DNA of 62,878 nt, filler included, from Candidatus Rokuibacteriota bacterium (GTDB taxonomy: Bacteria; JAUVQV01; DATDCY01): NCBI GenBank assembly GCA_031406795.1. It is 7 parts of 7 records of this genome, joined end to end, with 100 filler letters (N's around TTAATTAATTAA, not from the genome) between each part and the next. Parts side by side here need not be neighbours in the genome. Positions count along the whole stretch, not along the records: positions 1 to 8,899 come from JANOHV010000202.1; 6 more parts are not named here. One strand, written 5' to 3'. The notes below the pieces were generated by a model, which worked only from the letters and a program-made list of their open reading frames with translations, did no database searches and was not told the origin of the DNA. Below, piece by piece: positions 1-60,219 of this stretch. Position 1 is the stretch's first letter; every line of letters starts with the position of its first letter. The position numbers and the translations under genes are program-made.

Positions 1-243
<243 letters not shown>

Positions 244-267
244 TCAGTGCTGAAGTGGGGCGGCGAA

Positions 268-564
268 CTACTTCTCGATTACGCCGAGGATGTCATCCTC
301 GCGCAGGATCAGGTACTCGTCTTCGTCGATCTTGACTTCGGTGCCGCTGTACTTGCCGAAGAGGATCTTGTCGCCCTTCTTGACATCGGGCGCCAGCACG
401 GTGCCGTCGTCCTTGATCTTGCCCTTGCCCGTCGCGATCACTTCACCCATGATCGGCTTCTCTTTTGCCGAGTCAGGGATGATGATGCCGCCCTTGGTCT
501 TTTCGGCCTCTTCGAGACGCTTCACCAGAATCCGGTCGTGCAGGGGACGAATCTTTGACGCCAT
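268..564 (-). CDS. groES: Co-chaperonin GroES
   Basis: [55 protein letters not shown] before ATG at 564. Confidence 0.98.
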
Positions 565-626
565 AGTCGTGTTGCTCCTTTCGTGCTTTTTGGTAGTGAC
601 TCTACCCTTCAACGGAGAGCCTGACG

Positions 627-653
627 TTAGCACTCCCCGTCACCGACTGCTAA
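627..653. promoter_or_regulatory. CIRCE element (HrcA operator)
   Basis: TTAGCACTC-N9-GACTGCTAA, one mismatch from TTAGCACTC-N9-GAGTGCTAA, in the groES leader. Confidence 0.93.
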
Positions 654-663
654 CAGGCCCACA

Positions 664-692
664 ATATAGGGGTTGATGGTGCATATATCAAG
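664..692 (-). promoter_or_regulatory. Probable sigma32-like heat-shock promoter of groESL
   Basis: Minus strand CTTGATA-N13-CCCCTATAT resembles CTTGAAA-N13/14-CCCCATNT; just upstream of CIRCE. Confidence 0.6.
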
Positions 693-927
693 AGAATAAT
701 TTGAATGATACGAAACCATGATGGTCGCCAACGGCCGATATCAGACAATTATGGCATTTGTTTTCCAAAATCTTACAATATCTTAATATTTCTCTATATT
801 TCAAACTTTTTGCCTCTGAGATCGGCGCTCAGCAGGGCGGCAGCCTCGTGCGCAAAAACCTGTCGTTGCGGACAGCCCCGGCCTTGAGAGCACGTTTTTC
901 CATGGCCCTCCGCTCAAAGCTCGTGGT

Positions 928-2301
928 ATGAATCATCCCATGATGCCACCGATTTCCTCACGAGAGCGCGCCACCCGCCTGATCGAGGCCTTGCTCGGGA
1001 ATCGCCGCGAGGGCGGCCCCCGTGCGGGAGAAACGGCGCGTCTCGATCCGCGCGACGAGCGATTCGCCGCCGAACTCGCCCACGGCGTGGTGCGCCACCT
1101 CTCGCGGGTCGACTGGATCATCGCCCACGCGGCCGGCAAGGAGATCGAGCGCATCGTCCCACCTGCCCTGGCGGCCGCCCGCATCGGCGTTTACCAGTTG
1201 CTGTTCACCCCTTCGGTCCCCGCCTATGCCGCGGTGTCGGCGAGCGTCGACCTGGCCCGCACGCTCGCGCCCCAGACCGCCGGCTTCGTGAACTGGCTGC
1301 TGCGGCGCATCGGGGAGGATGCCGTCAACCAGCCCCGGCGCGCGGACTTCAGCGACGAACTCTCCTGGCTCGCCGCCTTTCACTCCTTCCCGCACTGGAT
1401 GGTGCGACGCTGGGTGAAGCGGCTCGGTGCCGCCGAAGCCGCGCTGCTACTGCAGGCGATGAACACCCACCCCTCCCCGCACCTGCGGGTGAACCGTCTG
1501 CGCACCACGCCCGCGGAGGTCGCCGGCGCGCTCGCCGCGGCCGGCTTCGAAGTCGAGCCCGGACGCTACACGCCCGATGCGCTGCACGTGCGCGGCGCCG
1601 GCGCGCTCACCGGGACGGCGCCCTTTCGCGAGGGGGCGATCTACTTCCAGGACGAGTCGTCGCAGTTGGCCGCGCTGGTGCTGGACCCGCGACCCGGGGA
1701 GCGCGTCCTCGATGCGTGCACCGGCGTCGGCGGCAAGGCGACGCAGATCGCCGAGCTCTCCGGCAACAAGGCGCGGATCGTCGCCGTCGACCAGGACTCC
1801 AGCCGCCTGGCGCGTCTTGCGGAGAATACCCGCCGCCTGGGCGCCGAAGGGATCGAGCCGCGCCGCGGCGACCTGCTCGATCCGGGCACCTGCGGCGACG
1901 AGCGCTTCGATGCGGTCCTGCTGGACGCGCCCTGCAGTTCGCTCGGGACGATCCCGCGCCACCCCGAGATCAAGTGGGCCAAGAAGGCCTCCGACCCGAA
2001 ACGCCTCGCGGAGCTGCAGCTTCGTCTCCTCGAGCGTTCGGCGGCTCTGCTCGACCCCGGCGGCCGGATCGTGTTCAGCACCTGCTCCACGGAGCCCGAG
2101 GAGGGCGAGGACGTGATTACCCGGTTCCTCAAGACGCACCCGGGTTTCCAGGTCGCCAGGATCGGGGTTCAATCTTCACCGGCCGGGGGAATCGGGAACC
2201 TCGGTGATCTGCTGACCCCCCGGGGCTTTCTGCGCACCTGGCCGCACCGCCACGGCATCGGCGGCGCATTCGTCGCCATGCTGACGAGCGAAAGGCGCTA
2301 G
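928..2301 (+). CDS. rsmB: 16S rRNA m5C967 methyltransferase RsmB/Sun (NusB-like N-domain)
   Basis: FQDESSQ, VLDACTGVGGK SAM motif, DAPCSSLG and STCS catalytic Cys motifs. Start may be 940 or 943. Confidence 0.93.
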   Translation: MNHPMMPPISSRERATRLIEALLGNRREGGPRAGETARLDPRDERFAAELAHGVVRHLSRVDWIIAHAAGKEIERIVPPALAAARIGVYQLLFTPSVPAYAAVSASVDLARTLAPQTAGFVNWLLRRIGEDAVNQPRRADFSDELSWLAAFHSFPHWMVRRWVKRLGAAEAALLLQAMNTHPSPHLRVNRLRTTPAEVAGALAAAGFEVEPGRYTPDALHVRGAGALTGTAPFREGAIYFQDESSQLAALVLDPRPGERVLDACTGVGGKATQIAELSGNKARIVAVDQDSSRLARLAENTRRLGAEGIEPRRGDLLDPGTCGDERFDAVLLDAPCSSLGTIPRHPEIKWAKKASDPKRLAELQLRLLERSAALLDPGGRIVFSTCSTEPEEGEDVITRFLKTHPGFQVARIGVQSSPAGGIGNLGDLLTPRGFLRTWPHRHGIGGAFVAMLTSERR

Positions 2302-2448
2302 GCTCGAAGCCAGCCGACATTCGGGAGCATGCCGGGGAGGAACAGGAAACACCTCGCAGTACTGATGGCGGTTATATATTCACTAGCACCGCCATGGCGA
2401 TTGTAGTATATATGAGCACACACGGACCATCGTCACGGGAGGCAATCG

Positions 2449-3624
2449 ATGTCAGGTAAGCGGATTCACCTCGACCATGCGGCGACCACTCCGGTGGACC
2501 CGGCTGTGGTGGCGGCGATGCTGCCGTATTTCACCGAGCGCTTCGGCAACCCGGCGAGCCTCTACGAAGAGGGCCTGGTCGCCCGGATCGCCGTCGACCT
2601 CGCCCGCGGGCAGGTGGCGCGGCTGCTCGGCGCCGACCCGTCGGAGGTCGTCTTCACCAGCGGCGGGTCCGAGAGCGACAATCACGCGATCCGGGGCGTG
2701 GTGCTCGCCCGCGGGCGCGAGGGCGCCCACATCATCACGACCGCCGTCGAACACCACGCCGTCCTCGAAACCGCCCACGACCTCGCCGGCCAGGGTTGCG
2801 ATCTCACGATCCTGCCCGTCGACGGCCAGGGCCTCGTGGACCCCGAAGACGTGCGGCGCGCCATCACTCCGAAGACGGTGCTGGTCTCCGTGATGCACGC
2901 GAACAACGAGGTCGGCACCGTTCAGCCGATCGCGGAGATCGGCCGGATTGCGCGGGAAGCGGGCGTCGTCTTCCACACCGACGCGGTGCAGACGTACGGA
3001 CACCTCCCGACCCCGGTCGACGAACTGGGCGTGGACCTGCTCTCGCTCTCCGGGCACAAACTCTACGGCCCCAAGGGGATCGGGGCGTTGTATGTCCGCA
3101 AGGGGACCCCGCTCGCGAAGCTGCTGCACGGCGGGAGCCAGGAGTCCGGCCGCCGCGCCGGGACCTGCAACGTCCCGGGGATCGTCGGCCTCGGCAAGGC
3201 GGCCGCGATCGCCGCGCGCGCGATGGCTGATGACGCGGCGCACTGCGCAAGGCTGCGGGATCGGCTCATATCGGGCATCACCGGCGGCATCGAGCAGGTG
3301 CGGCTCAACGGCCACCCCGAGCGGCGACTGCCGAACAACGCCAGCTTCACCATCGCCGGCGTCGAGGGAGAGGCACTGCTGCTCCTGCTCGACCGGCAGG
3401 GATTCTCGGTCTCCTCGGGCTCCGCGTGCGCGTCCAGCTCGGCGGACCCCTCGCACGTGCTCGTCGCGATGGGGGTTCCGGCGCCCCTGGCCCACGGTTC
3501 AGTGCGGGTGACCGTCGGCCGGAGCACCAGCGTCGAGGACATCGATCGTTTTCGGGACGCGCTCGCCGACTGCGTCGCGGGGCTCAGGCGGATTTCCCCC
3601 CGCGGTGCCGAGTGCGGGTGGTGA
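2449..3624 (+). CDS. iscS: Cysteine desulfurase (IscS/NifS group I)
   Basis: LDHAATTP, FTSGGSES, HTDAVQ, SGHK (PLP Lys), SSGSACAS; GGAGG RBS. Confidence 0.93.
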   Translation: MSGKRIHLDHAATTPVDPAVVAAMLPYFTERFGNPASLYEEGLVARIAVDLARGQVARLLGADPSEVVFTSGGSESDNHAIRGVVLARGREGAHIITTAVEHHAVLETAHDLAGQGCDLTILPVDGQGLVDPEDVRRAITPKTVLVSVMHANNEVGTVQPIAEIGRIAREAGVVFHTDAVQTYGHLPTPVDELGVDLLSLSGHKLYGPKGIGALYVRKGTPLAKLLHGGSQESGRRAGTCNVPGIVGLGKAAAIAARAMADDAAHCARLRDRLISGITGGIEQVRLNGHPERRLPNNASFTIAGVEGEALLLLLDRQGFSVSSGSACASSSADPSHVLVAMGVPAPLAHGSVRVTVGRSTSVEDIDRFRDALADCVAGLRRISPRGAECGW

Positions 3625-3732
3625 CCGGTCCGACGGCGTTCACCGGCGGCGTCGGCGGCCCCCGTCGATCGTCCGGGATCAGGTTCGGCAATCATGCCGT
3701 GCGCGGCCCGGCGTCCGGCCGCTGAAGGAGGA

Positions 3733-4884
3733 ATGATGGAGATCGCAACGCAAGCCGTGCGCATCGGGTTGGATTGGGACAGCCGCACCGGAGCGGTGAC
3801 GATCCCCGTCTACCAGACCGCGACATTCCGCCACCCCGGGTTGGGGCAGAGCACCGGCTACGACTACAGCCGCTCGGGGAACCCGACCCGGCAGGCGCTC
3901 GAGGAAGGGATGGCCCGGCTCGACGGCGGCGCGCGAGGTTTCGCCTACTCGTCGGGGATGGCCGCCATCACCAGCCTGATGCTGCTCTTCAAGCCGGGCG
4001 ACCACATCGTCGTCACCGAGGACCTCTACGGCGGCACCTACCGGCTCTTCGAGCAGGTCTTCAGGCGCTACGGCCTGGAGTTCAGCTACGCCGACACCAG
4101 CGACGAGGAAAGCGTCCGCGCGGCGTTCCGGCACGAGACGCGGGCGCTCTTCGTCGAGTCGCTCACCAACCCGCTGCTCAAGTTCGCCGACATCCCGGCG
4201 CTCGCCGGGCTCTGCCGGGAGCGGGGCATCCTCTGCATCGTCGACAACACCTTCCTCACGCCGTATCTGCTGCGGCCCCTCGAGCTGGGCGCCGATATGA
4301 CCATCTACAGCGGCAGCAAGTACCTCTCGGGCCACAACGACACGATCTGCGGCATCGCCGTCGTCAAGGAGCCGGAACTGGCCGAGCGGGTCTACTTCCA
4401 CCAGAACGCCGCCGGTGCCGTGCTCGGCCCGCAGGACAGCTGGCTCGTAATCCGCGGACTCAAGACGCTCGGCATCCGTCTCGACCGGCAACAGCAGAAC
4501 GCTCGAGCGATCGCCGATTGGCTCGGCGCCCACCCGCTCGTCGCGAAAGTCCGCTATCCCGGACTCCCCGGACATCCCGACCACGAGCTCATGCAGCGGC
4601 AGGCCGGGGGGTTCGGCGCCATGGTGTCCTTCGAGGTCGCCGCCCCGGAGCTGGTGGAACGCATCCTGGGCGCAACGCGCCTGATCTCGTTCGCCGAGAG
4701 CCTCGGCGGCGTCGAATCGCTGATCACCTATCCCTGGCTGCAGACGCACGCCGACATCGAGCCGGAGTTGCGCGCGCGGCTCGGCATCTCCGAGACGCTG
4801 CTGCGGCTCTCCGTCGGCATCGAGGATGCGCGCGATCTGATCGCCGACCTGGCGCAAGCGTTCGACGGGGGGGAACCGCGATGA
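3733..4884 (+). CDS. Cys/Met metabolism PLP enzyme, cystathionine gamma-synthase-like
   Basis: YDYSRSGNPT, DLYGGTY, VDNTF, SGSKYLSGH, AESLGG, LRLSVGIE; AAGGAGG RBS before ATG at 3733/3736. Confidence 0.9.
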   Translation: MMEIATQAVRIGLDWDSRTGAVTIPVYQTATFRHPGLGQSTGYDYSRSGNPTRQALEEGMARLDGGARGFAYSSGMAAITSLMLLFKPGDHIVVTEDLYGGTYRLFEQVFRRYGLEFSYADTSDEESVRAAFRHETRALFVESLTNPLLKFADIPALAGLCRERGILCIVDNTFLTPYLLRPLELGADMTIYSGSKYLSGHNDTICGIAVVKEPELAERVYFHQNAAGAVLGPQDSWLVIRGLKTLGIRLDRQQQNARAIADWLGAHPLVAKVRYPGLPGHPDHELMQRQAGGFGAMVSFEVAAPELVERILGATRLISFAESLGGVESLITYPWLQTHADIEPELRARLGISETLLRLSVGIEDARDLIADLAQAFDGGEPR

Positions 4885-6023
4885 AATTCGCCACGCGCAT
4901 CGTTCATGGCCCGCATGCGCTCGATCCGTCGACCGGCGCGCTCTCGGTCCCGGTGCACCACGCCTCGACGTTCGCGCAAAGCTCGGTCGACCACTTCGGG
5001 AAATACGACTACGGCCGTTCGGGCAACCCGACGCGCGAGGCGCTCGAAGACACCGTTGCCGCCCTCGAAGGCGGCGCGATCGCCTGCGCCTTCGGCTCCG
5101 GGATGGCGGCCATCTCCTCGACGCTGCTGCTCTTCGCTCCCGGCGACCATCTCGTGGTCTGCGAGGACGTCTACGGCGGGGCCTTCAGGATACTCACCGG
5201 CGTCTTCGCCCGGTGGGGGTTGGCCGTCACGTTCGTCGACGCCACCGACCTCGCGGCCGTCGAGGCGGCAATCGGCCCGCGCACGAAAGCGATCTACCTC
5301 GAGACGCCGTCGAATCCCCTGCTGAAGATCACGGATCTGCGCGGTGCAGCGGCGCTGGCGCGCGAGCGCGGGCTGCTCTCGCTCGTGGACAACACCTTCA
5401 TGACGCCGTACCTGCAGCGGCCGCTGGAACTCGGCTGCGATCTCGTGCTGCACAGCGGCACCAAGTTCCTCAACGGACACAGCGACGTGGTCTGCGGGTT
5501 CGCCGTGGCCGCCGACCCCGCTCTCGGGAAGCGGCTGCGCGCCGTCCAGAATGCATTCGGCGCCATCCTCGGCCCCCAGGACTGCTGGCTGACGATGCGC
5601 GGACTCAAGACACTCAAGGTCCGGATGGACGCCAGCCAGCGCGGCGCCGAGCGGATCGCCGCCTGGCTCGCGGGGCAGCGCAACGTCGCGCGCGTCCACT
5701 ACCCGGGACTTTCCGGGCACCCCGGCGCCGAGGTCCACCGAACTCAGGCCGACGGCCCCGGCGCGGTCCTCTCGTTCGAACTGGCGTCTGCGGCGCTGAC
5801 CCGGCGGCTCCTCGAAGGCGTGGAGTTGGCCGCCTTCGCGGTGAGCCTCGGGGGCGTGGAGAGCATCCTCTCCTGGCCGTCCAGGATGTCCCACGCGGCG
5901 ATGCCGCCCGCGGAGCGTGCGGCGCGCGGGATCAGCGACAATCTGGTGAGGCTCTCGGTGGGTCTGGAAGATCCCGACGATCTTATCGCCGATCTCGATC
6001 GGTTGCTCGGCGATTCCCGTTAG
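4881..6023 (+). CDS. Cys/Met metabolism PLP enzyme, cystathionine beta-lyase-like
   Basis: Starts MKFATRIVHG with ATGA overlap of the upstream paralog; YGRSGNPT, ETPSNP, HSGTKFLNGH, VSLGG. Confidence 0.9.
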   Translation: MKFATRIVHGPHALDPSTGALSVPVHHASTFAQSSVDHFGKYDYGRSGNPTREALEDTVAALEGGAIACAFGSGMAAISSTLLLFAPGDHLVVCEDVYGGAFRILTGVFARWGLAVTFVDATDLAAVEAAIGPRTKAIYLETPSNPLLKITDLRGAAALARERGLLSLVDNTFMTPYLQRPLELGCDLVLHSGTKFLNGHSDVVCGFAVAADPALGKRLRAVQNAFGAILGPQDCWLTMRGLKTLKVRMDASQRGAERIAAWLAGQRNVARVHYPGLSGHPGAEVHRTQADGPGAVLSFELASAALTRRLLEGVELAAFAVSLGGVESILSWPSRMSHAAMPPAERAARGISDNLVRLSVGLEDPDDLIADLDRLLGDSR

Positions 6024-6026
6024 CCG

Positions 6027-6221
6027 TCAGATCCCTTCGCCGTCAAGGCAGGCGATACCAACCGAGAGGCGTACCTTCTCATGGCGGTCGATCTGTACGA
6101 CGCGTCCATCCTGGATAACAAGCGTCACCGTGCCAAAACGCAGCGCGGCGAGCGCTTCACTGATGCGCCGCTCGAGTTCTGGAGGCAGCGGGGCTGACGT
6201 ATTACTGGGCTGTTGCGGCAT
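6027..6221 (-). CDS. YezD/DUF2292 family small protein
   Basis: LRFGTVTLVIQDGRVVQIDRHEKVRL signature; GAGGAGG RBS before ATG at 6221. Confidence 0.85.
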   Translation of the reverse strand: MPQQPSNTSAPLPPELERRISEALAALRFGTVTLVIQDGRVVQIDRHEKVRLSVGIACLDGEGI

Positions 6222-6257
6222 CTCGGCCCTCCTCACGTGGTCCGCACTTATTTCTTA

Positions 6258-6285
6258 TTGACATCCTGTTGGCATAGTATATCAT
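6258..6285 (+). promoter_or_regulatory. sigma70-type promoter of the rhodanese gene
   Basis: TTGACA-N16-TATCAT in an AT-rich divergent spacer. Confidence 0.65.
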
Positions 6286-6385
6286 AGAGATAGTTATTGT
6301 CGTGTATGTTTTGTGTCACTGGTCGCATCAGGTGTCACGGACGGAATAGGCTATCGAGGTAAGCTGAGGCTGACCAGGCAACTGG

Positions 6386-6436
6386 AGGCCAGGCAGGATC
6401 GACCGAGAACCGGTCGTCCTGCCTGGCCTTTTTTTT
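6386..6436 (+). terminator. Intrinsic terminator inside a 5' leader (attenuator-like)
   Basis: AGGCCAGGCAGGA(T)CGACCG pairs with CGGTCG-TCCTGCCTGGCCT, then a T-run; lies between the promoter and the RBS of the gene at 6455. Confidence 0.85.
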
Positions 6437-6454
6437 ACCCGAAAGGAGAGCGGC

Positions 6455-7417
6455 ATGAAAAAGGTCTTCATTGGTTTTGTTACAGCAGTGGTACTGACGG
6501 CATCGTTCGCCGCGGCGGAAACGGGCACAGGATACAAGGGCTACCCTCGCGGCGATGCACTGGTCAGCGTGCACGAACTCAAGGACTTGATCGAAAGCGG
6601 CACCCCGAACCTCGTCATTATCGAGACCGCGAGCGCAGTGGAGTATTATCTGGGCCACATCCCGGGCGCGCGGCTCGTCGAGCGGGCGGATTTCGAGGCA
6701 CCCCCCGAGACGCAGGACGGTGTCACCGGCAATCTGATCGATGCAACCGGCTTTTCGAAACTCGCGCGAAGGCTCGGCGTCAACCGCGACTCCAAGATCG
6801 TGATCTACGACCGGCGCTGCGATGCGACTCGTCTCTGGTGGGCCTTCTTCTACTTCGGCAAGCTCGACGTGCGCGTTCTCGATGGCGGGATCGTGGCCTG
6901 GAAGAGCGAGGGCAACCCGACCGACCTGCTCGCGGGTGCAGCCCCGATGTCCGGTTCCTTCACCGCGGCCGTAAGCCTCCCGTCGCTTCGCGTGGAGACA
7001 GAAGCGATCGTCGCCCTGCGCTCCGACACCTCAGGACAGCTCTGGGATACCCGCGACCGGAAAGAATTCTGCGGCGAGGAGATGAAGCGTGGGGCGTACC
7101 GGGCGGGACGCATCCCCTGGGGCCGCCACAGCGAGTGGACCCTCTTCAAGAGCAAGGGAAACCCCACCGAATGGCTGCCGGCGGCCGACGTGCTCGCCGT
7201 GCTCGACCGGCTGGGTTTCGACCGCGGCAGCGACCAGTTCTTCTTCTGCCAGTCCGGCGTGCGGTCAACGCAGGCGCTTTTCACGCTGTACCTTGCGGGG
7301 TGGGACATCGAGAAGCTGCACAATTACGACAGTTCCTGGATCGGTTGGTCAAAGGACCCGCAGCTTCCGGTCAAGGTCGGCTGCGCACCGGAGGAGGTCG
7401 CGGCGATTGTTCGTTGA
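6455..7417 (+). CDS. Tandem-domain rhodanese/sulfurtransferase with N-terminal signal peptide
   Basis: GHIPGA, VLDGG, GRIP, active-site loop CQSGVRS, YDSSWIGW; MKK + hydrophobic core + Ala-rich cleavage region. Confidence 0.88.
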   Translation: MKKVFIGFVTAVVLTASFAAAETGTGYKGYPRGDALVSVHELKDLIESGTPNLVIIETASAVEYYLGHIPGARLVERADFEAPPETQDGVTGNLIDATGFSKLARRLGVNRDSKIVIYDRRCDATRLWWAFFYFGKLDVRVLDGGIVAWKSEGNPTDLLAGAAPMSGSFTAAVSLPSLRVETEAIVALRSDTSGQLWDTRDRKEFCGEEMKRGAYRAGRIPWGRHSEWTLFKSKGNPTEWLPAADVLAVLDRLGFDRGSDQFFFCQSGVRSTQALFTLYLAGWDIEKLHNYDSSWIGWSKDPQLPVKVGCAPEEVAAIVR

Positions 7418-8413
7418 TTATATCTGGTAGTCGACGAGATCCGAGCGCTTCTGGAGGACGATGATCCTCGCCTCCTCGTTGATGACGATCGAGTTGGCGG
7501 GGACGCTGCGGTTGAGAAACACTCCCGCCCCGATCGTGCTCCCGGCGCCGACGACCGTGTCGCCGCCCATGATCGTGGCACCGGCATACACCGTCACGCG
7601 GTCCTCGAGTGCCGGGTGGCGAATCTTGCCGTGCAGAGCGCGCCCGCCCGAGAGCGACCGCGCGATGAGCCCGACGCTCTGGTAGATCTTGACGTGGTCG
7701 CCGATGCGCGAGGTCTCGCCGATGACCGTACCCGTGCCGTGGTCGATGTAGAAGTGCGAGCCGATCTCGGCGCCCGGGTGGATGTCGATGCCGGTGCGCG
7801 AGTGCGCATACTCGGTCATGATCCGCGGCACGAGCGGGACGCCCTTGGCGTAGAGGATGTGCGCCATGCGCTGGATGGCGACCGCCTCGACGAAGGGATA
7901 GGCCAGGATGACCTCGTCGATGGCCACCGAGGCCGGGTCGCCCTGGAAGGCGGCCTCGACGTCGGTCTGCAGCACCTCGCGCACGGTGGGCAGGGCGCGC
8001 AGGAACTCGGCCGTGATGACGCCGGCGAGGCTCGGCACCTCCGGCAGCGCCGGGCAGGCGGGCGAACAGCGGAGGCTCTTGGTGATCTCGTCGCGCAGAC
8101 GCTGGCAGACCGAGTGCAACAGCACGGCGACCTGTCTTTCGAGTTCGTCGGCGTGAGGCAGGCGCTCGTCGAAGAAACCCGGGAAGAGCAGCCGCAGCAG
8201 GTCCCGCGCGATCATCCCCACTGCGCGTTTCGAGGGAAGGTTCTTCCCCTCGAGGTGGTTGATGCTCCCCACCCGCCGGTAGGAGTCGACGAGCAGCGCG
8301 GCCGGCTCCTCGCAGCGCGCGCACAACCGGGGATTGCCTGTTGCGGGATCGGGGCTGCCGCACGCCGGAATCCGACATCCCCGCCCATCTTGGCCCGACC
8401 GCTGCTCGCTCAT
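7418..8413 (-). CDS. cysE: Serine O-acetyltransferase (EpsC-type)
   Basis: GDPAS, AHSRTGIDIHPGA, IDHGTGTVIGET, RHP hexapeptide region; GGAGGAGG RBS before ATG at 8413. Confidence 0.92.
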   Translation of the reverse strand: MSEQRSGQDGRGCRIPACGSPDPATGNPRLCARCEEPAALLVDSYRRVGSINHLEGKNLPSKRAVGMIARDLLRLLFPGFFDERLPHADELERQVAVLLHSVCQRLRDEITKSLRCSPACPALPEVPSLAGVITAEFLRALPTVREVLQTDVEAAFQGDPASVAIDEVILAYPFVEAVAIQRMAHILYAKGVPLVPRIMTEYAHSRTGIDIHPGAEIGSHFYIDHGTGTVIGETSRIGDHVKIYQSVGLIARSLSGGRALHGKIRHPALEDRVTVYAGATIMGGDTVVGAGSTIGAGVFLNRSVPANSIVINEEARIIVLQKRSDLVDYQI

Positions 8414-8799
8414 GTCCAGGCGCTCCTCCTCCATGCTCCGGAAGATAGTACCCTTCCCGCGGCGCGGATGAAAGACCCTCGCGTACGCCGACGGTAAAAC
8501 CAGACGTCCGGTTGGCTGCAACGCTCTCGTCGGGCTGATCCGGGGCAGGCGCTTAGCCGACCACTTAATTCCGTAATCGAACAAACCAACTATTGCTATA
8601 TTCCGAGTAGTGTCATATAAACTCAACCCGAAAATATCAACAATGACAGATGAATAGACGGTATCGTGCGTGAAGTGAGACTCGCGCGGGCGACCTGCTA
8701 ATTGGGTAGCTCAGCGGTCATTATAACAAGACGGCTGGTGGGGGGAGTCGACAAGTCACGCTGTCGGCAGATGACAAGGGAACAGGGGAAGGGAGCGGT

Positions 8800-8899
8800 A
8801 TGAGCGAGATTGTGATGTTTGCACTGGGGTGCGGAGTGCTCGGGGTGGTGTACGCGCTGGTCACCGCCAGCTGGGTGATCAAGCAGGACGCCGGGAGTT
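8800..8899 (+). CDS. Probable N-terminus of a membrane H+/Na+-translocating pyrophosphatase (truncated by contig end)
   Basis: MSEIVMFALGCGVLGVVYALVTASWVIKQDAGS resembles the first TM helix and xxAG motif of HppA; only 33 codons visible. Confidence 0.6.
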
Positions 8900-8999
8900 N
8901 NNNNNNNNNNNNNNNNNNNNNNNNNNNNNNNNNNNNNNNNNNNTTAATTAATTAANNNNNNNNNNNNNNNNNNNNNNNNNNNNNNNNNNNNNNNNNNNN
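8900..8999. other. Artificial contig linker
   Basis: N-run with TTAATTAATTAA (stops in all six frames). Confidence 0.99.
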
Positions 9000-13341: not shown

Positions 13342-13531
13342 CGCGACTCGTCGAGTGTCGATATGTTTAGCACGCAAGAAGACGAGGAAAGAAGGAGAGC
13401 GGGAGAGAGCGATGATTGAATCGAAGAAACGAAAAGGAGGGTCTATAGAGTTGCTCAAGACAAGGAGTTTCGCAGATGCCGAGTTCGCCAGAAGCGAGAT
13501 TGGCAACAACACGAAAAAAGGAGACCGCAGG

Positions 13532-14002
13532 ATGATGAACAAAGCCAGGAAGATCGTTGCAGTTTGCTGTTTCAGCAGCTTGATGGTCGCGGGGCTCGCT
13601 ACCTCGGGTCTTGCCGATTCCCGGGAGCGGGAGAACAACCGGAGCCGCAGTCGCGACAGCTCGGATCGGGATCGCCCCGGCCGTGGTGGTTCGGACCGTG
13701 ATCGTTCGGATCGGGATCGTTCGGATCGGGATCATTCGGACCGGGATGATCAGACTCAGAATCCGAACCCGAATCCCCCGCCTCCGCCCCCGCCTCCGCC
13801 GCCGCCACCGCCCCCGCCCCCGCCTCCGCCCGTGGTCAAGACGTGGGCGCTGTATAACCAGTACTGCTCCAGTTGCCACGGTTCATCGAAGCAGGGAAGC
13901 TCCGCTTCCGCGACCCAGTCCGCCATCAGCAGCAACCGCGGCGGTATGGGCTCCCTGAGTCTGACTTCCGCGCAGCTCTCCGCGCTGGCGGCCGGTCAGT
14001 AA
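13532..14002 (+). CDS. Exported monoheme cytochrome c with SDRDR repeats and poly-Pro linker
   Basis: AAGGAG RBS; signal-peptide-like N-terminus; CSSCH heme motif and distal GGM; 18-Pro run. Confidence 0.85.
   Translation: MMNKARKIVAVCCFSSLMVAGLATSGLADSRERENNRSRSRDSSDRDRPGRGGSDRDRSDRDRSDRDHSDRDDQTQNPNPNPPPPPPPPPPPPPPPPPPPVVKTWALYNQYCSSCHGSSKQGSSASATQSAISSNRGGMGSLSLTSAQLSALAAGQ
13691..13750 (+). repeat. 15-bp coding tandem repeat x4 (SDRD[R/H/D])
   Basis: TCGGAYCGKGATSRT units at 13691, 13706, 13721, 13736; a further copy at 13662. Confidence 0.9.
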
Positions 14003-15752: not shown

Positions 15753-15852
15753 NNNNNNNNNNNNNNNNNNNNNNNNNNNNNNNNNNNNNNNNNNNNTTAA
15801 TTAATTAANNNNNNNNNNNNNNNNNNNNNNNNNNNNNNNNNNNNNNNNNNNN
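15753..15852. other. Artificial contig linker
   Basis: N-run with TTAATTAATTAA. Confidence 0.99.
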
Positions 15853-36865: not shown

Positions 36866-36965
36866 NNNNNNNNNNNNNNNNNNNNNNNNNNNNNNNNNNN
36901 NNNNNNNNNTTAATTAATTAANNNNNNNNNNNNNNNNNNNNNNNNNNNNNNNNNNNNNNNNNNNN
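36866..36965. other. Artificial contig linker
   Basis: N-run with TTAATTAATTAA. Confidence 0.99.
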
Positions 36966-48594: not shown

Positions 48595-48694
48595 NNNNNN
48601 NNNNNNNNNNNNNNNNNNNNNNNNNNNNNNNNNNNNNNTTAATTAATTAANNNNNNNNNNNNNNNNNNNNNNNNNNNNNNNNNNNNNNNNNNNN
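48595..48694. other. Artificial contig linker
   Basis: N-run with TTAATTAATTAA. Confidence 0.99.
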
Positions 48695-51354: not shown

Positions 51355-51454
51355 NNNNNNNNNNNNNNNNNNNNNNNNNNNNNNNNNNNNNNNNNNNNTT
51401 AATTAATTAANNNNNNNNNNNNNNNNNNNNNNNNNNNNNNNNNNNNNNNNNNNN
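51355..51454. other. Artificial contig linker
   Basis: N-run with TTAATTAATTAA. Confidence 0.99.
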
Positions 51455-60119: not shown

Positions 60120-60219
60120 NNNNNNNNNNNNNNNNNNNNNNNNNNNNNNNNNNNNNNNNNNNNTTAATTAATTAANNNNNNNNNNNNNNNNNNNNNNNNN
60201 NNNNNNNNNNNNNNNNNNN
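60120..60219. other. Artificial contig linker
   Basis: N-run with TTAATTAATTAA. Confidence 0.99.

Follow-up and report, generated by a model that had tools for sequence, protein, structure and literature searches.

BglG, SacY and LicT are antiterminators that act on a small RNA element, the RAT hairpin. For sulfur genes, sulfur-dependent termination in the ssu leader of Bacillus subtilis was reportedly observed in 2001, with no factor identified. In addition, the "ssuB-ABC-leader" was described as a candidate attenuator in three genomes of the Bacillus cereus group (Naville and Gautheret 2010; PMC2965389), for which the accessible part of the paper gives no mechanism. In Salmonella, CysE ends in ...YGDGI and CdiA in GYGI, and both insert into CysK, with the terminal isoleucine being essential (PMC12895370); a C-terminal isoleucine peptide sits in the CysK active site in CymR-CysK of B. 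subtilis and in CysE-CysK (PMC12895370, PMC4961446), and O-acetylserine dissociates CysE and CymR from CysK upon cysteine depletion (bioRxiv 10.1101/2024.09.19.614015; all three sources as far as their accessible text goes). CymR itself represses by binding to DNA, and it does so while in complex with CysK.

The DUF2292 protein family, to which YezD belongs, has a published link to sulfur as well: OscA of Pseudomonas corrugata is encoded by a small gene that shares a transcript with the gene for a sulfate-binding protein and has been linked to the response to sulfur starvation (Viti et al. 2009, as cited in the accessible parts of PMC2996968 and PMC3596284). Deletion of yezD in B. subtilis gave no phenotype under deep starvation according to the available text of PMC6385201. 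A Geobacter genome was screened in PMC11109978, whose main text, in the part at hand, does not hold the motif described below and whose supplement may list the RNA; the part of PMC4342826 at hand has nothing on such a hairpin. Neither the hairpin family nor a YezD mechanism was found in the published literature that we searched, which covered few subscription papers. Going by these partial sources, prior publications amount to a single Bacillus example, listed as a candidate attenuator with no explanation, and to OscA, described as a small protein of sulfur starvation.

A yezD gene and a rhodanese leader share one spacer

The stretch of DNA analyzed here (the window; 62,878 nucleotides from Candidatus Rokuibacteriota bacterium, assembly GCA_031406795.1, genome G000) contains N runs that link separate contigs (8900-8999, 15753-15852, 36866-36965, 48595-48694, 51355-51454, and 60120-60219), so that gene order across these spacers is not real. 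The locus of interest lies on the first part (window 1-8899, record JANOHV010000202.1, contig C145), where a DUF2292 gene on the minus strand and a rhodanese gene on the plus strand diverge from a 233-nt spacer. A plus-strand block (2449-6023) that encodes a cysteine desulfurase-like protein along with two Cys/Met PLP enzymes converges on this pair from the left, and a minus-strand block (7418-8626) with a cysE-like serine acetyltransferase converges from the right, leaving the rhodanese gene as the sole gene behind the leader. The features of the locus are the following.

6027..6221, minus strand: yezD/DUF2292 gene, 64 aa, candidate RNA-binding antiterminator (PF10055; helix and two strands in AlphaFold2)
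6030..6044, minus strand: encodes the C-terminal tail DGEGI, a candidate peptide for docking to CysK (sequence)
6227..6234, minus strand: yezD Shine-Dalgarno GAGGAGGG (sequence)
6276..6303, minus strand: yezD promoter-like site ACGACA-16-TATACT with extended -10 (consensus scan 9/12; putative function)
6258..6285, plus strand: leader promoter, sigma70-type, TTGACA-16-TATCAT (consensus scan 11/12; start probably near 6292)
6306..6362, plus strand: ORF of 18 codons, two of them for Cys, lacking a Shine-Dalgarno and probably present by chance (sequence)
6368..6390, plus strand: conserved hairpin (G)CUGA-CCAG-loop-CUGG-AGG(C), candidate protein-binding site (folding, covariation, family matches)
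6386..6436, plus strand: intrinsic terminator, 19-bp stem and U8, its first five bases being the 3' arm of the hairpin (folding)
6443..6448, plus strand: Shine-Dalgarno AAGGAG of the rhodanese gene (sequence)
6455..7417, plus strand: two-domain rhodanese/sulfurtransferase with a signal-peptide-like N terminus (PF00581, two stretches)

The divergent YezD gene, named in the original prediction, was recovered with PF10055 at E 1.2e-18 (66.9 bits against a cut-off of 22). Its start is most likely the ATG at 6221, given the Shine-Dalgarno ahead of it and the match to a 64-aa homolog that is 91% identical. The promoter predicted at 6258 coincides with the 11/12 site; in total, the consensus scan found three promoter-like sites against 0.1 expected. 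The -10 boxes of the plus- and minus-strand sites overlap (6258-6303), so that the two transcription units, yezD and the leader of the rhodanese gene, may be rivals for RNA polymerase. The spacer has a GC content of 52% and yezD 61%, against 68 to 71% in the flanking genes. For expression, one of 17 sequencing runs was RNA (share 0.06, contigs only), and the four DNA runs compared with the locus gave no coverage over the hairpin. Elsewhere in the window, an ORF at 13355-14002 carries RDRSD repeats, a poly-proline run and a CxxCH heme motif close to its C terminus.

Hairpin and terminator exclude each other

The hairpin GGCT-GA-CCAG-GCAA-CTGG-A-GGCC lies at 6368-6390, as had been predicted, and the predicted fold was reproduced at -17.1 kcal/mol, accounting for 97% of the ensemble (fold of 6360-6395; z -3.35, with none of 200 shuffles equally good). 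It comprises a 4-bp upper stem, an internal loop and a lower stem; what had been taken for a simple GA bulge is GA opposite a single A, that is, a 2x1 internal loop. The terminator stem (6386-6429) has 19 bp and -39.4 kcal/mol and is followed by U8 at 6429-6436 (z -8.06 for 6384-6440). Since AGGCC at 6386-6390 is common to the 3' arm of the hairpin and the base of the terminator, the folds are mutually exclusive, and the competition between them was confirmed by folding. In equilibrium folds of growing transcripts, the lower hairpin stem was 96 to 100% present up to position 6424 and gone once the last terminator bases emerged, and holding the hairpin against the terminator was computed to cost 5.4 kcal/mol. 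By this computation the unbound leader is OFF, with the terminator displacing the lower hairpin stem by default, and moderately tight binding to the hairpin would suffice to switch the leader over.

The hairpin matched no known riboswitch: within window positions 5000-8000, no Rfam 15 family, SAM-I and T-box included, reached the gathering score, as the original prediction had implied. The best match, int-alpA (E 3.4), was rejected because it rests on the terminator. Searching six related loci against Rfam returned only separate SAM, lysine, and cobalamin riboswitches, none over the hairpin.

Taken alone, the IUPAC pattern of the hairpin is no more frequent than expected by chance in a genome this rich in GC (152 relaxed matches; 7 strict against 5 in the reversed control) and was discarded as a detector; a terminator was present only at the window site among the 30 of 32 listed matches examined. 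The combination of hairpin and overlapping terminator does exceed chance, with one site in the genome when 150 of 312 candidates were scored; no further site was seen in this set, among the matches listed, including ahead of metY-cysK. The window site scores 50 bits, having been a seed of the model. Upstream of metY-cysK (contig C51, about 2690-2720; locus L099), a promoter region with the inverted repeat ATACTAT-N7-ATAGTAT and no hairpin is found, and one ATAGTAT half occurs in the window spacer at 6275-6281. This repeat is possibly a DNA operator for a separate sulfur regulator.

The hairpin belongs to a covarying family in several phyla

To sample related sites independently of their pairing, we selected for CTGA..AGG plus a terminator in 66 loci, with no requirement that the stem pair. 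This yielded 30 distinct sites, 26 of which form all four stem pairs; after dropping seven sites from loci that had been fetched by a pattern containing stem letters, the figure is 19 of 23. The terminator arm starts 0 to 5 nt before AGG in all 30, although up to +8 was allowed. In the resulting alignment (A1; 27 rows, after removal of two sites with 0 to 1 pairs and one near-duplicate), pairing is 93.9% and five pairs show two-sided changes, most of the covariation coming from an A-U/G-C exchange in the third pair; slid controls were 21 to 52% paired, and none of 500 shuffles scored as high in pairing and covariation. Another 48 distinct non-seed sequences from 55 further loci were 93.5% paired when aligned to the model, a procedure that biases the alignment in the model's favor. 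Near-invariant features are the unpaired GA/A and a U-G pair. Loops are 4 to 6 nt, variable and A-rich; the GNRA tetraloop of the original prediction holds for the window's own hairpin (GCAA) and was rejected as a family feature, since that is the only one among 61 distinct sites.

Records named as Geobacter, Clostridia, Lachnospiraceae, and Methylotuvimicrobium also carry the core beside DUF2292 genes. In Bacillus mycoides the order is SAM riboswitch, yezD, hairpin-terminator, cysH-sat-cysC. The unit found in the window recurs in G006 (locus L053), where a promoter and the hairpin precede a terminator whose first bases are the same, and where the rhodanese is 63% identical. Scanning 36 of the 55 ORFs downstream gave 16 for sulfur uptake or assimilation or for Met/SAM, 8 that resemble nitrogenase or NifB/X, 2 corrinoid proteins, 4 others, and 6 with no match. 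Nitrogenase-like proteins can scavenge sulfur. Some members have non-sulfur targets (a sigma-factor-like gene, an RND transporter), and one lies behind a cobalamin riboswitch. Taken together, the sequence data indicate that CUGA-4bp-loop-4bp-AGG defines a hairpin family which covaries, spans several phyla, has no counterpart in Rfam and is located mostly ahead of sulfur genes.

Contig C155 of G006 (103574-180316) carries 13 hairpin-terminator sites and two DUF2292 genes within about 80 kb and is a sulfur-scavenging island with nitrogenase-like, NifB-like, and corrinoid genes. Hairpin-terminators stand behind cobalamin riboswitches at L136 (G253; riboswitch confirmed by Rfam) and L138 (G187; by eye only), both in genomes with a divergent YezD subtype.

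The printed sequences of the ssuB-ABC-leader, as far as the accessible text goes, also carry CTGA-4bp-loop-4bp-AGG running into a terminator ahead of sulfonate transport genes (by eye). However, the consensus structure proposed there is another one, and the available part of PMC2965389 mentions neither a multi-phylum family nor a link to YezD.

The hairpin tracks DUF2292 across genomes

The original prediction had called for a covariance model and a co-occurrence analysis, and both agree with it: besides being conserved with covariation near DUF2292 and sulfur genes, the hairpin tracks DUF2292. We compared DUF2292-positive and -negative genomes in identical genome samples, using model R2 and matches at E<=0.01, with 34 to 51 candidates scored per genome. 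Hairpin-terminator matches were found in 6 of 8 positive against 0 of 143 negative genomes in the phylum of G006, in 17 of 27 against 2 of 124 in the phylum of G008, and in 41 of 46 against 11 of 55 in the order of G006, where the only seeds came from G006 and G145. Fisher P values range from 1e-9 to 1e-13 and are overstated, because related genomes do not count as independent and some genomes occur in both the first and the third sample. Part of the seeds came from two of the samples. DUF2292-positive genomes lacking a match number 2 of 8, 10 of 27, and 5 of 46, respectively. The two exceptions in the G008 phylum are G267, where the match lies in coding DNA, and G244, where a distant YezD-like ORF lies directly upstream of the site. 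The latter (L123; G244:C90:44685-44752, minus strand) is a strong hairpin-terminator behind a YezD-like ORF missed by Pfam and ahead of a sigma-70-region-like gene; it is a non-sulfur use of the YezD-hairpin pair, perhaps in a prophage.

In the G006 order, strong matches (E<1e-4) occur in 6 of 55 DUF2292-negative genomes. Four of the five such loci retrieved were read: in one yezD is truncated, in two the hairpin immediately follows cysK and there is no yezD, and one shows two intact sites at a contig start. The cysK-hairpin loci in which yezD is truncated or absent (L208 in G315, L210 in G323, and L211 in G352) are natural cases that bear on whether the terminator goes constitutive without yezD.

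Around 75 distinct DUF2292 genes, the hairpin lies downstream on the same strand in 31 cases (yezD ending at most 300 nt before it), upstream in 2 (L007, L051), and divergently in 3 (the window, L086, L183), with none nearby in 39. Hairpin-terminator sites reach 20 per genome, far more than there are yezD genes. At three gammaproteobacterial loci the hairpin stands behind the DUF2292 gene with no obvious terminator. In the class of G009, from which these three loci were read, DUF2292 is present in 4 of 121 genomes, a tally that counts one unpublished genome left aside in our analysis. The linkage between hairpin and DUF2292 is strong but imperfect.

The genome studied here has a single DUF2292 gene and, with 150 of 312 candidates scored, a single hairpin-terminator site, and the two are adjacent. 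Five sister genomes of the phylum (77 to 95% complete) showed no DUF2292, no hairpin-terminator, and no close rhodanese. The lower GC content of the module, together with a CysK that is 81 to 83% identical to three CysKs of the G006 phylum, makes it plausible that the module was gained by transfer.

A subset of YezD proteins carries a CysE-like tail

The YezD protein of the window shares its protein family and, through it, the link to sulfur starvation with OscA; it is a homolog and not an equivalog, reaching 38.8 bits in NF033785 against a cut-off of 85 (E 6.8e-10), and the accounts of OscA, in their accessible parts, do not feature the RNA element. The AlphaFold2 monomer has one helix (14-26) and two strands (30-37 and 40-48) at pLDDT 74.7, with a low-confidence tail. 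A natural tandem two-domain DUF2292 protein is modeled more confidently (pLDDT 87.5, pTM 0.77), which suggests a dimeric unit. Foldseek searches of both models against PDB and BFVD gave no match at E<=0.001; the best VIA Z values in the fold searches were 2.7 for the monomer and 5.2 for the tandem, and a search of the ESM Atlas returned DUF2292 clusters only; neither model was assigned to a known RNA-binding fold. The core Q-x-[DEN]-x-x-E-K-x-R is present in 143 of 150 representatives, and this strand is a candidate for the RNA contact.

YezD of this genome ends in ...LDGEGI, which places a C-terminal isoleucine in a G-x-G-I motif within the low-confidence tail, as in the CysK-docking peptides of CysE and CymR described above. 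A G-x-G-I end occurs, after a variable linker, in 27 of 75 distinct DUF2292 locus proteins, most of the others stopping right past the core, and in 55 of the best 150 of 5,815 representatives, a top list that favors tandem proteins (48 of 58 tandem or long against 7 of 92 single proteins). Fifteen of the same 150 end in YGDGI, the ending of Salmonella CysE. For comparison, 3 of 11,440 long frames in G000 have a G-x-G-I end. About a third of the YezD proteins have a conserved CysE-like tail and roughly two thirds lack one. The tandem proteins at L085 to L089, one of which is the tandem modeled above, all have the G-x-G-I end. The gene directly upstream is cysK for 9 of 25 tailed against 0 of 46 tailless yezD genes, mostly at one orthologous locus. 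CysK of G000 (L099:1477-2436; TIGR01136, 431.8 bits) keeps T72, S73, T76, and Q146, matching the docking residues named in the accessible part of PMC12895370.

The convergent cysE-like protein of the window ends in ...DYQI (7418-7430, minus strand); this C-terminal isoleucine tail could compete with YezD for CysK. At L003, the gene just upstream of DUF2292 (upstream of 4001), which resembles that of a sulfate ABC ATPase, ends in ...GDYQI.

A model for the switch and its alternatives

The leader is likely a protein-operated attenuator in which a hairpin overlaps a terminator. As had been proposed for this locus, YezD would bind the hairpin and block the terminator under sulfur limitation, a reading to which we assign a probability of about 0.55. 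In the unbound leader, the hairpin would form first during transcription and the terminator would then displace its lower stem, turning the rhodanese gene off. When sulfur is short, YezD, probably as a dimer and at this locus presumably in trans from the opposite strand, would hold the shared AGGCC so that polymerase reads into the rhodanese gene. For tailed proteins, one may further suppose that CysK, as long as sulfide is abundant, keeps the tail bound in its active site and that O-acetylserine, building up under sulfur limitation, frees YezD to bind RNA; tailless YezD would need other control, for instance of its own expression, as where the SAM riboswitch precedes yezD in B. mycoides.

This proposed switch would resemble BglG/RAT antitermination, in which the 5' arm of the terminator shares a few bases with a small hairpin that contains an internal loop, the default is OFF, and a dimeric protein stabilizes the hairpin; the RNA architecture is the same here, and the last property is what we propose for YezD. 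In contrast, YezD has neither a CAT nor a PRD domain, only PF10055 being found in its 69-aa frame, the RNA consensus differs, and the proposed input is CysK/O-acetylserine rather than PTS phosphorylation. YezD and its hairpin would therefore work like that system without being a member of it. Similarly, YezD would sense like CymR-CysK with opposite polarity and at the RNA level: CymR acts on DNA as a repressor when bound to CysK, whereas YezD would be an RNA-binding activator when free (CymR as in the accessible text of the sources above).

Alternatively, the hairpin might be the antiterminator site of another protein, with YezD a co-regulated member or adaptor, for example a modulator of CysK only. 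The strong sites in DUF2292-negative genomes and the 39 DUF2292 genes with no hairpin nearby fit this view, and the tail would give YezD a plausible job free of RNA. Still, tailless yezD genes stand 8 to 110 nt before the hairpin in distant phyla, a YezD-like ORF accompanies the non-sulfur copy in G244, and the single gene and single site of the present genome are adjacent, so that we consider another binder unlikely. Somewhat less probable is that YezD binds the hairpin as a nut-like loading site and modifies RNA polymerase to pass this and later terminators. A short stem capped by an A-rich loop, together with a basic protein of small size, would suit such a role, as would four DUF2292 hairpin loci with no terminator (L059, L061, and L062 among them) and the gammaproteobacterial loci; against it, the overlap of AGG by the terminator arm at every one of the 30 sites is not needed for loading. 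A riboswitch for O-acetylserine or sulfide, with the aptamer embedded in the terminator and no protein required, could account for the near-invariant GA/A and U-G pair and for the sulfur gene context. We regard it as improbable, however, because the element has only about 23 nt, one stem and a variable loop, and because a tight tie to one protein family is not what one expects from a riboswitch.

We give the least credence to ribosome-mediated attenuation through yezD or the 18-codon ORF as leader peptide. The original prediction saw no Cys-rich leader peptide; such an ORF does exist, with its two Cys codons and a stop 5 nt before the hairpin, and the 31 same-strand loci place the end of yezD suitably close. 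Yet the ORF lacks a Shine-Dalgarno, no conserved translated leader rich in the sensed amino acid was found, and the orthologous L053 leader, with some 30 nt from -10 box to hairpin, is too short for this ORF. Because yezD is divergent from the leader in this genome, it cannot be a cis leader peptide here, and the same geometry at L086 and L183, the position downstream of the hairpin at L007 and L051, and the excess of sites over yezD genes all argue in the same direction. It is also doubtful, about as much as for the riboswitch, that this locus is a relic of a transferred cassette with a leaky constitutive terminator. The failure to find the module in the five sister genomes, its GC content, and its single target gene are compatible with a relic, but the promoters, the two folds, the Shine-Dalgarno sites, and yezD with its tail have all stayed intact, and the site scores well (being a model seed).

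Binding and antitermination by YezD thus remain our preferred reading. The whole chain, in which YezD/OscA would be a new class of RNA-binding antiterminator set by CysK and O-acetylserine and switching a multi-phylum sulfur-scavenging regulon through a 23-nt hairpin, is a more tentative proposal that we hold at well below even odds.

Implications for sulfur control

This locus is a minimal case, with one gene and one site back-to-back, and as such separates action in trans from coupling to translation. The CysE-like tail, which the original prediction had missed, offers a route for sensing, and the proposed system has few parts, namely YezD (64 aa), the 23-nt hairpin, CysK, and O-acetylserine. 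The model suggests a molecular role for YezD/OscA, a protein with a sulfur-starvation phenotype since 2009 (according to the accessible citing text), and bears on how anaerobes and Bacillota sense sulfur shortage at operons that have no S-box, T-box, CysB, or CymR. If true, a moonlighting enzyme, CysK, would govern transcription termination; a whole regulon, including nitrogenase-like and corrinoid genes and up to 20 sites per genome, would become annotated; and YezD with its hairpin would join CysB and CymR as a third global logic by which bacteria control sulfur.
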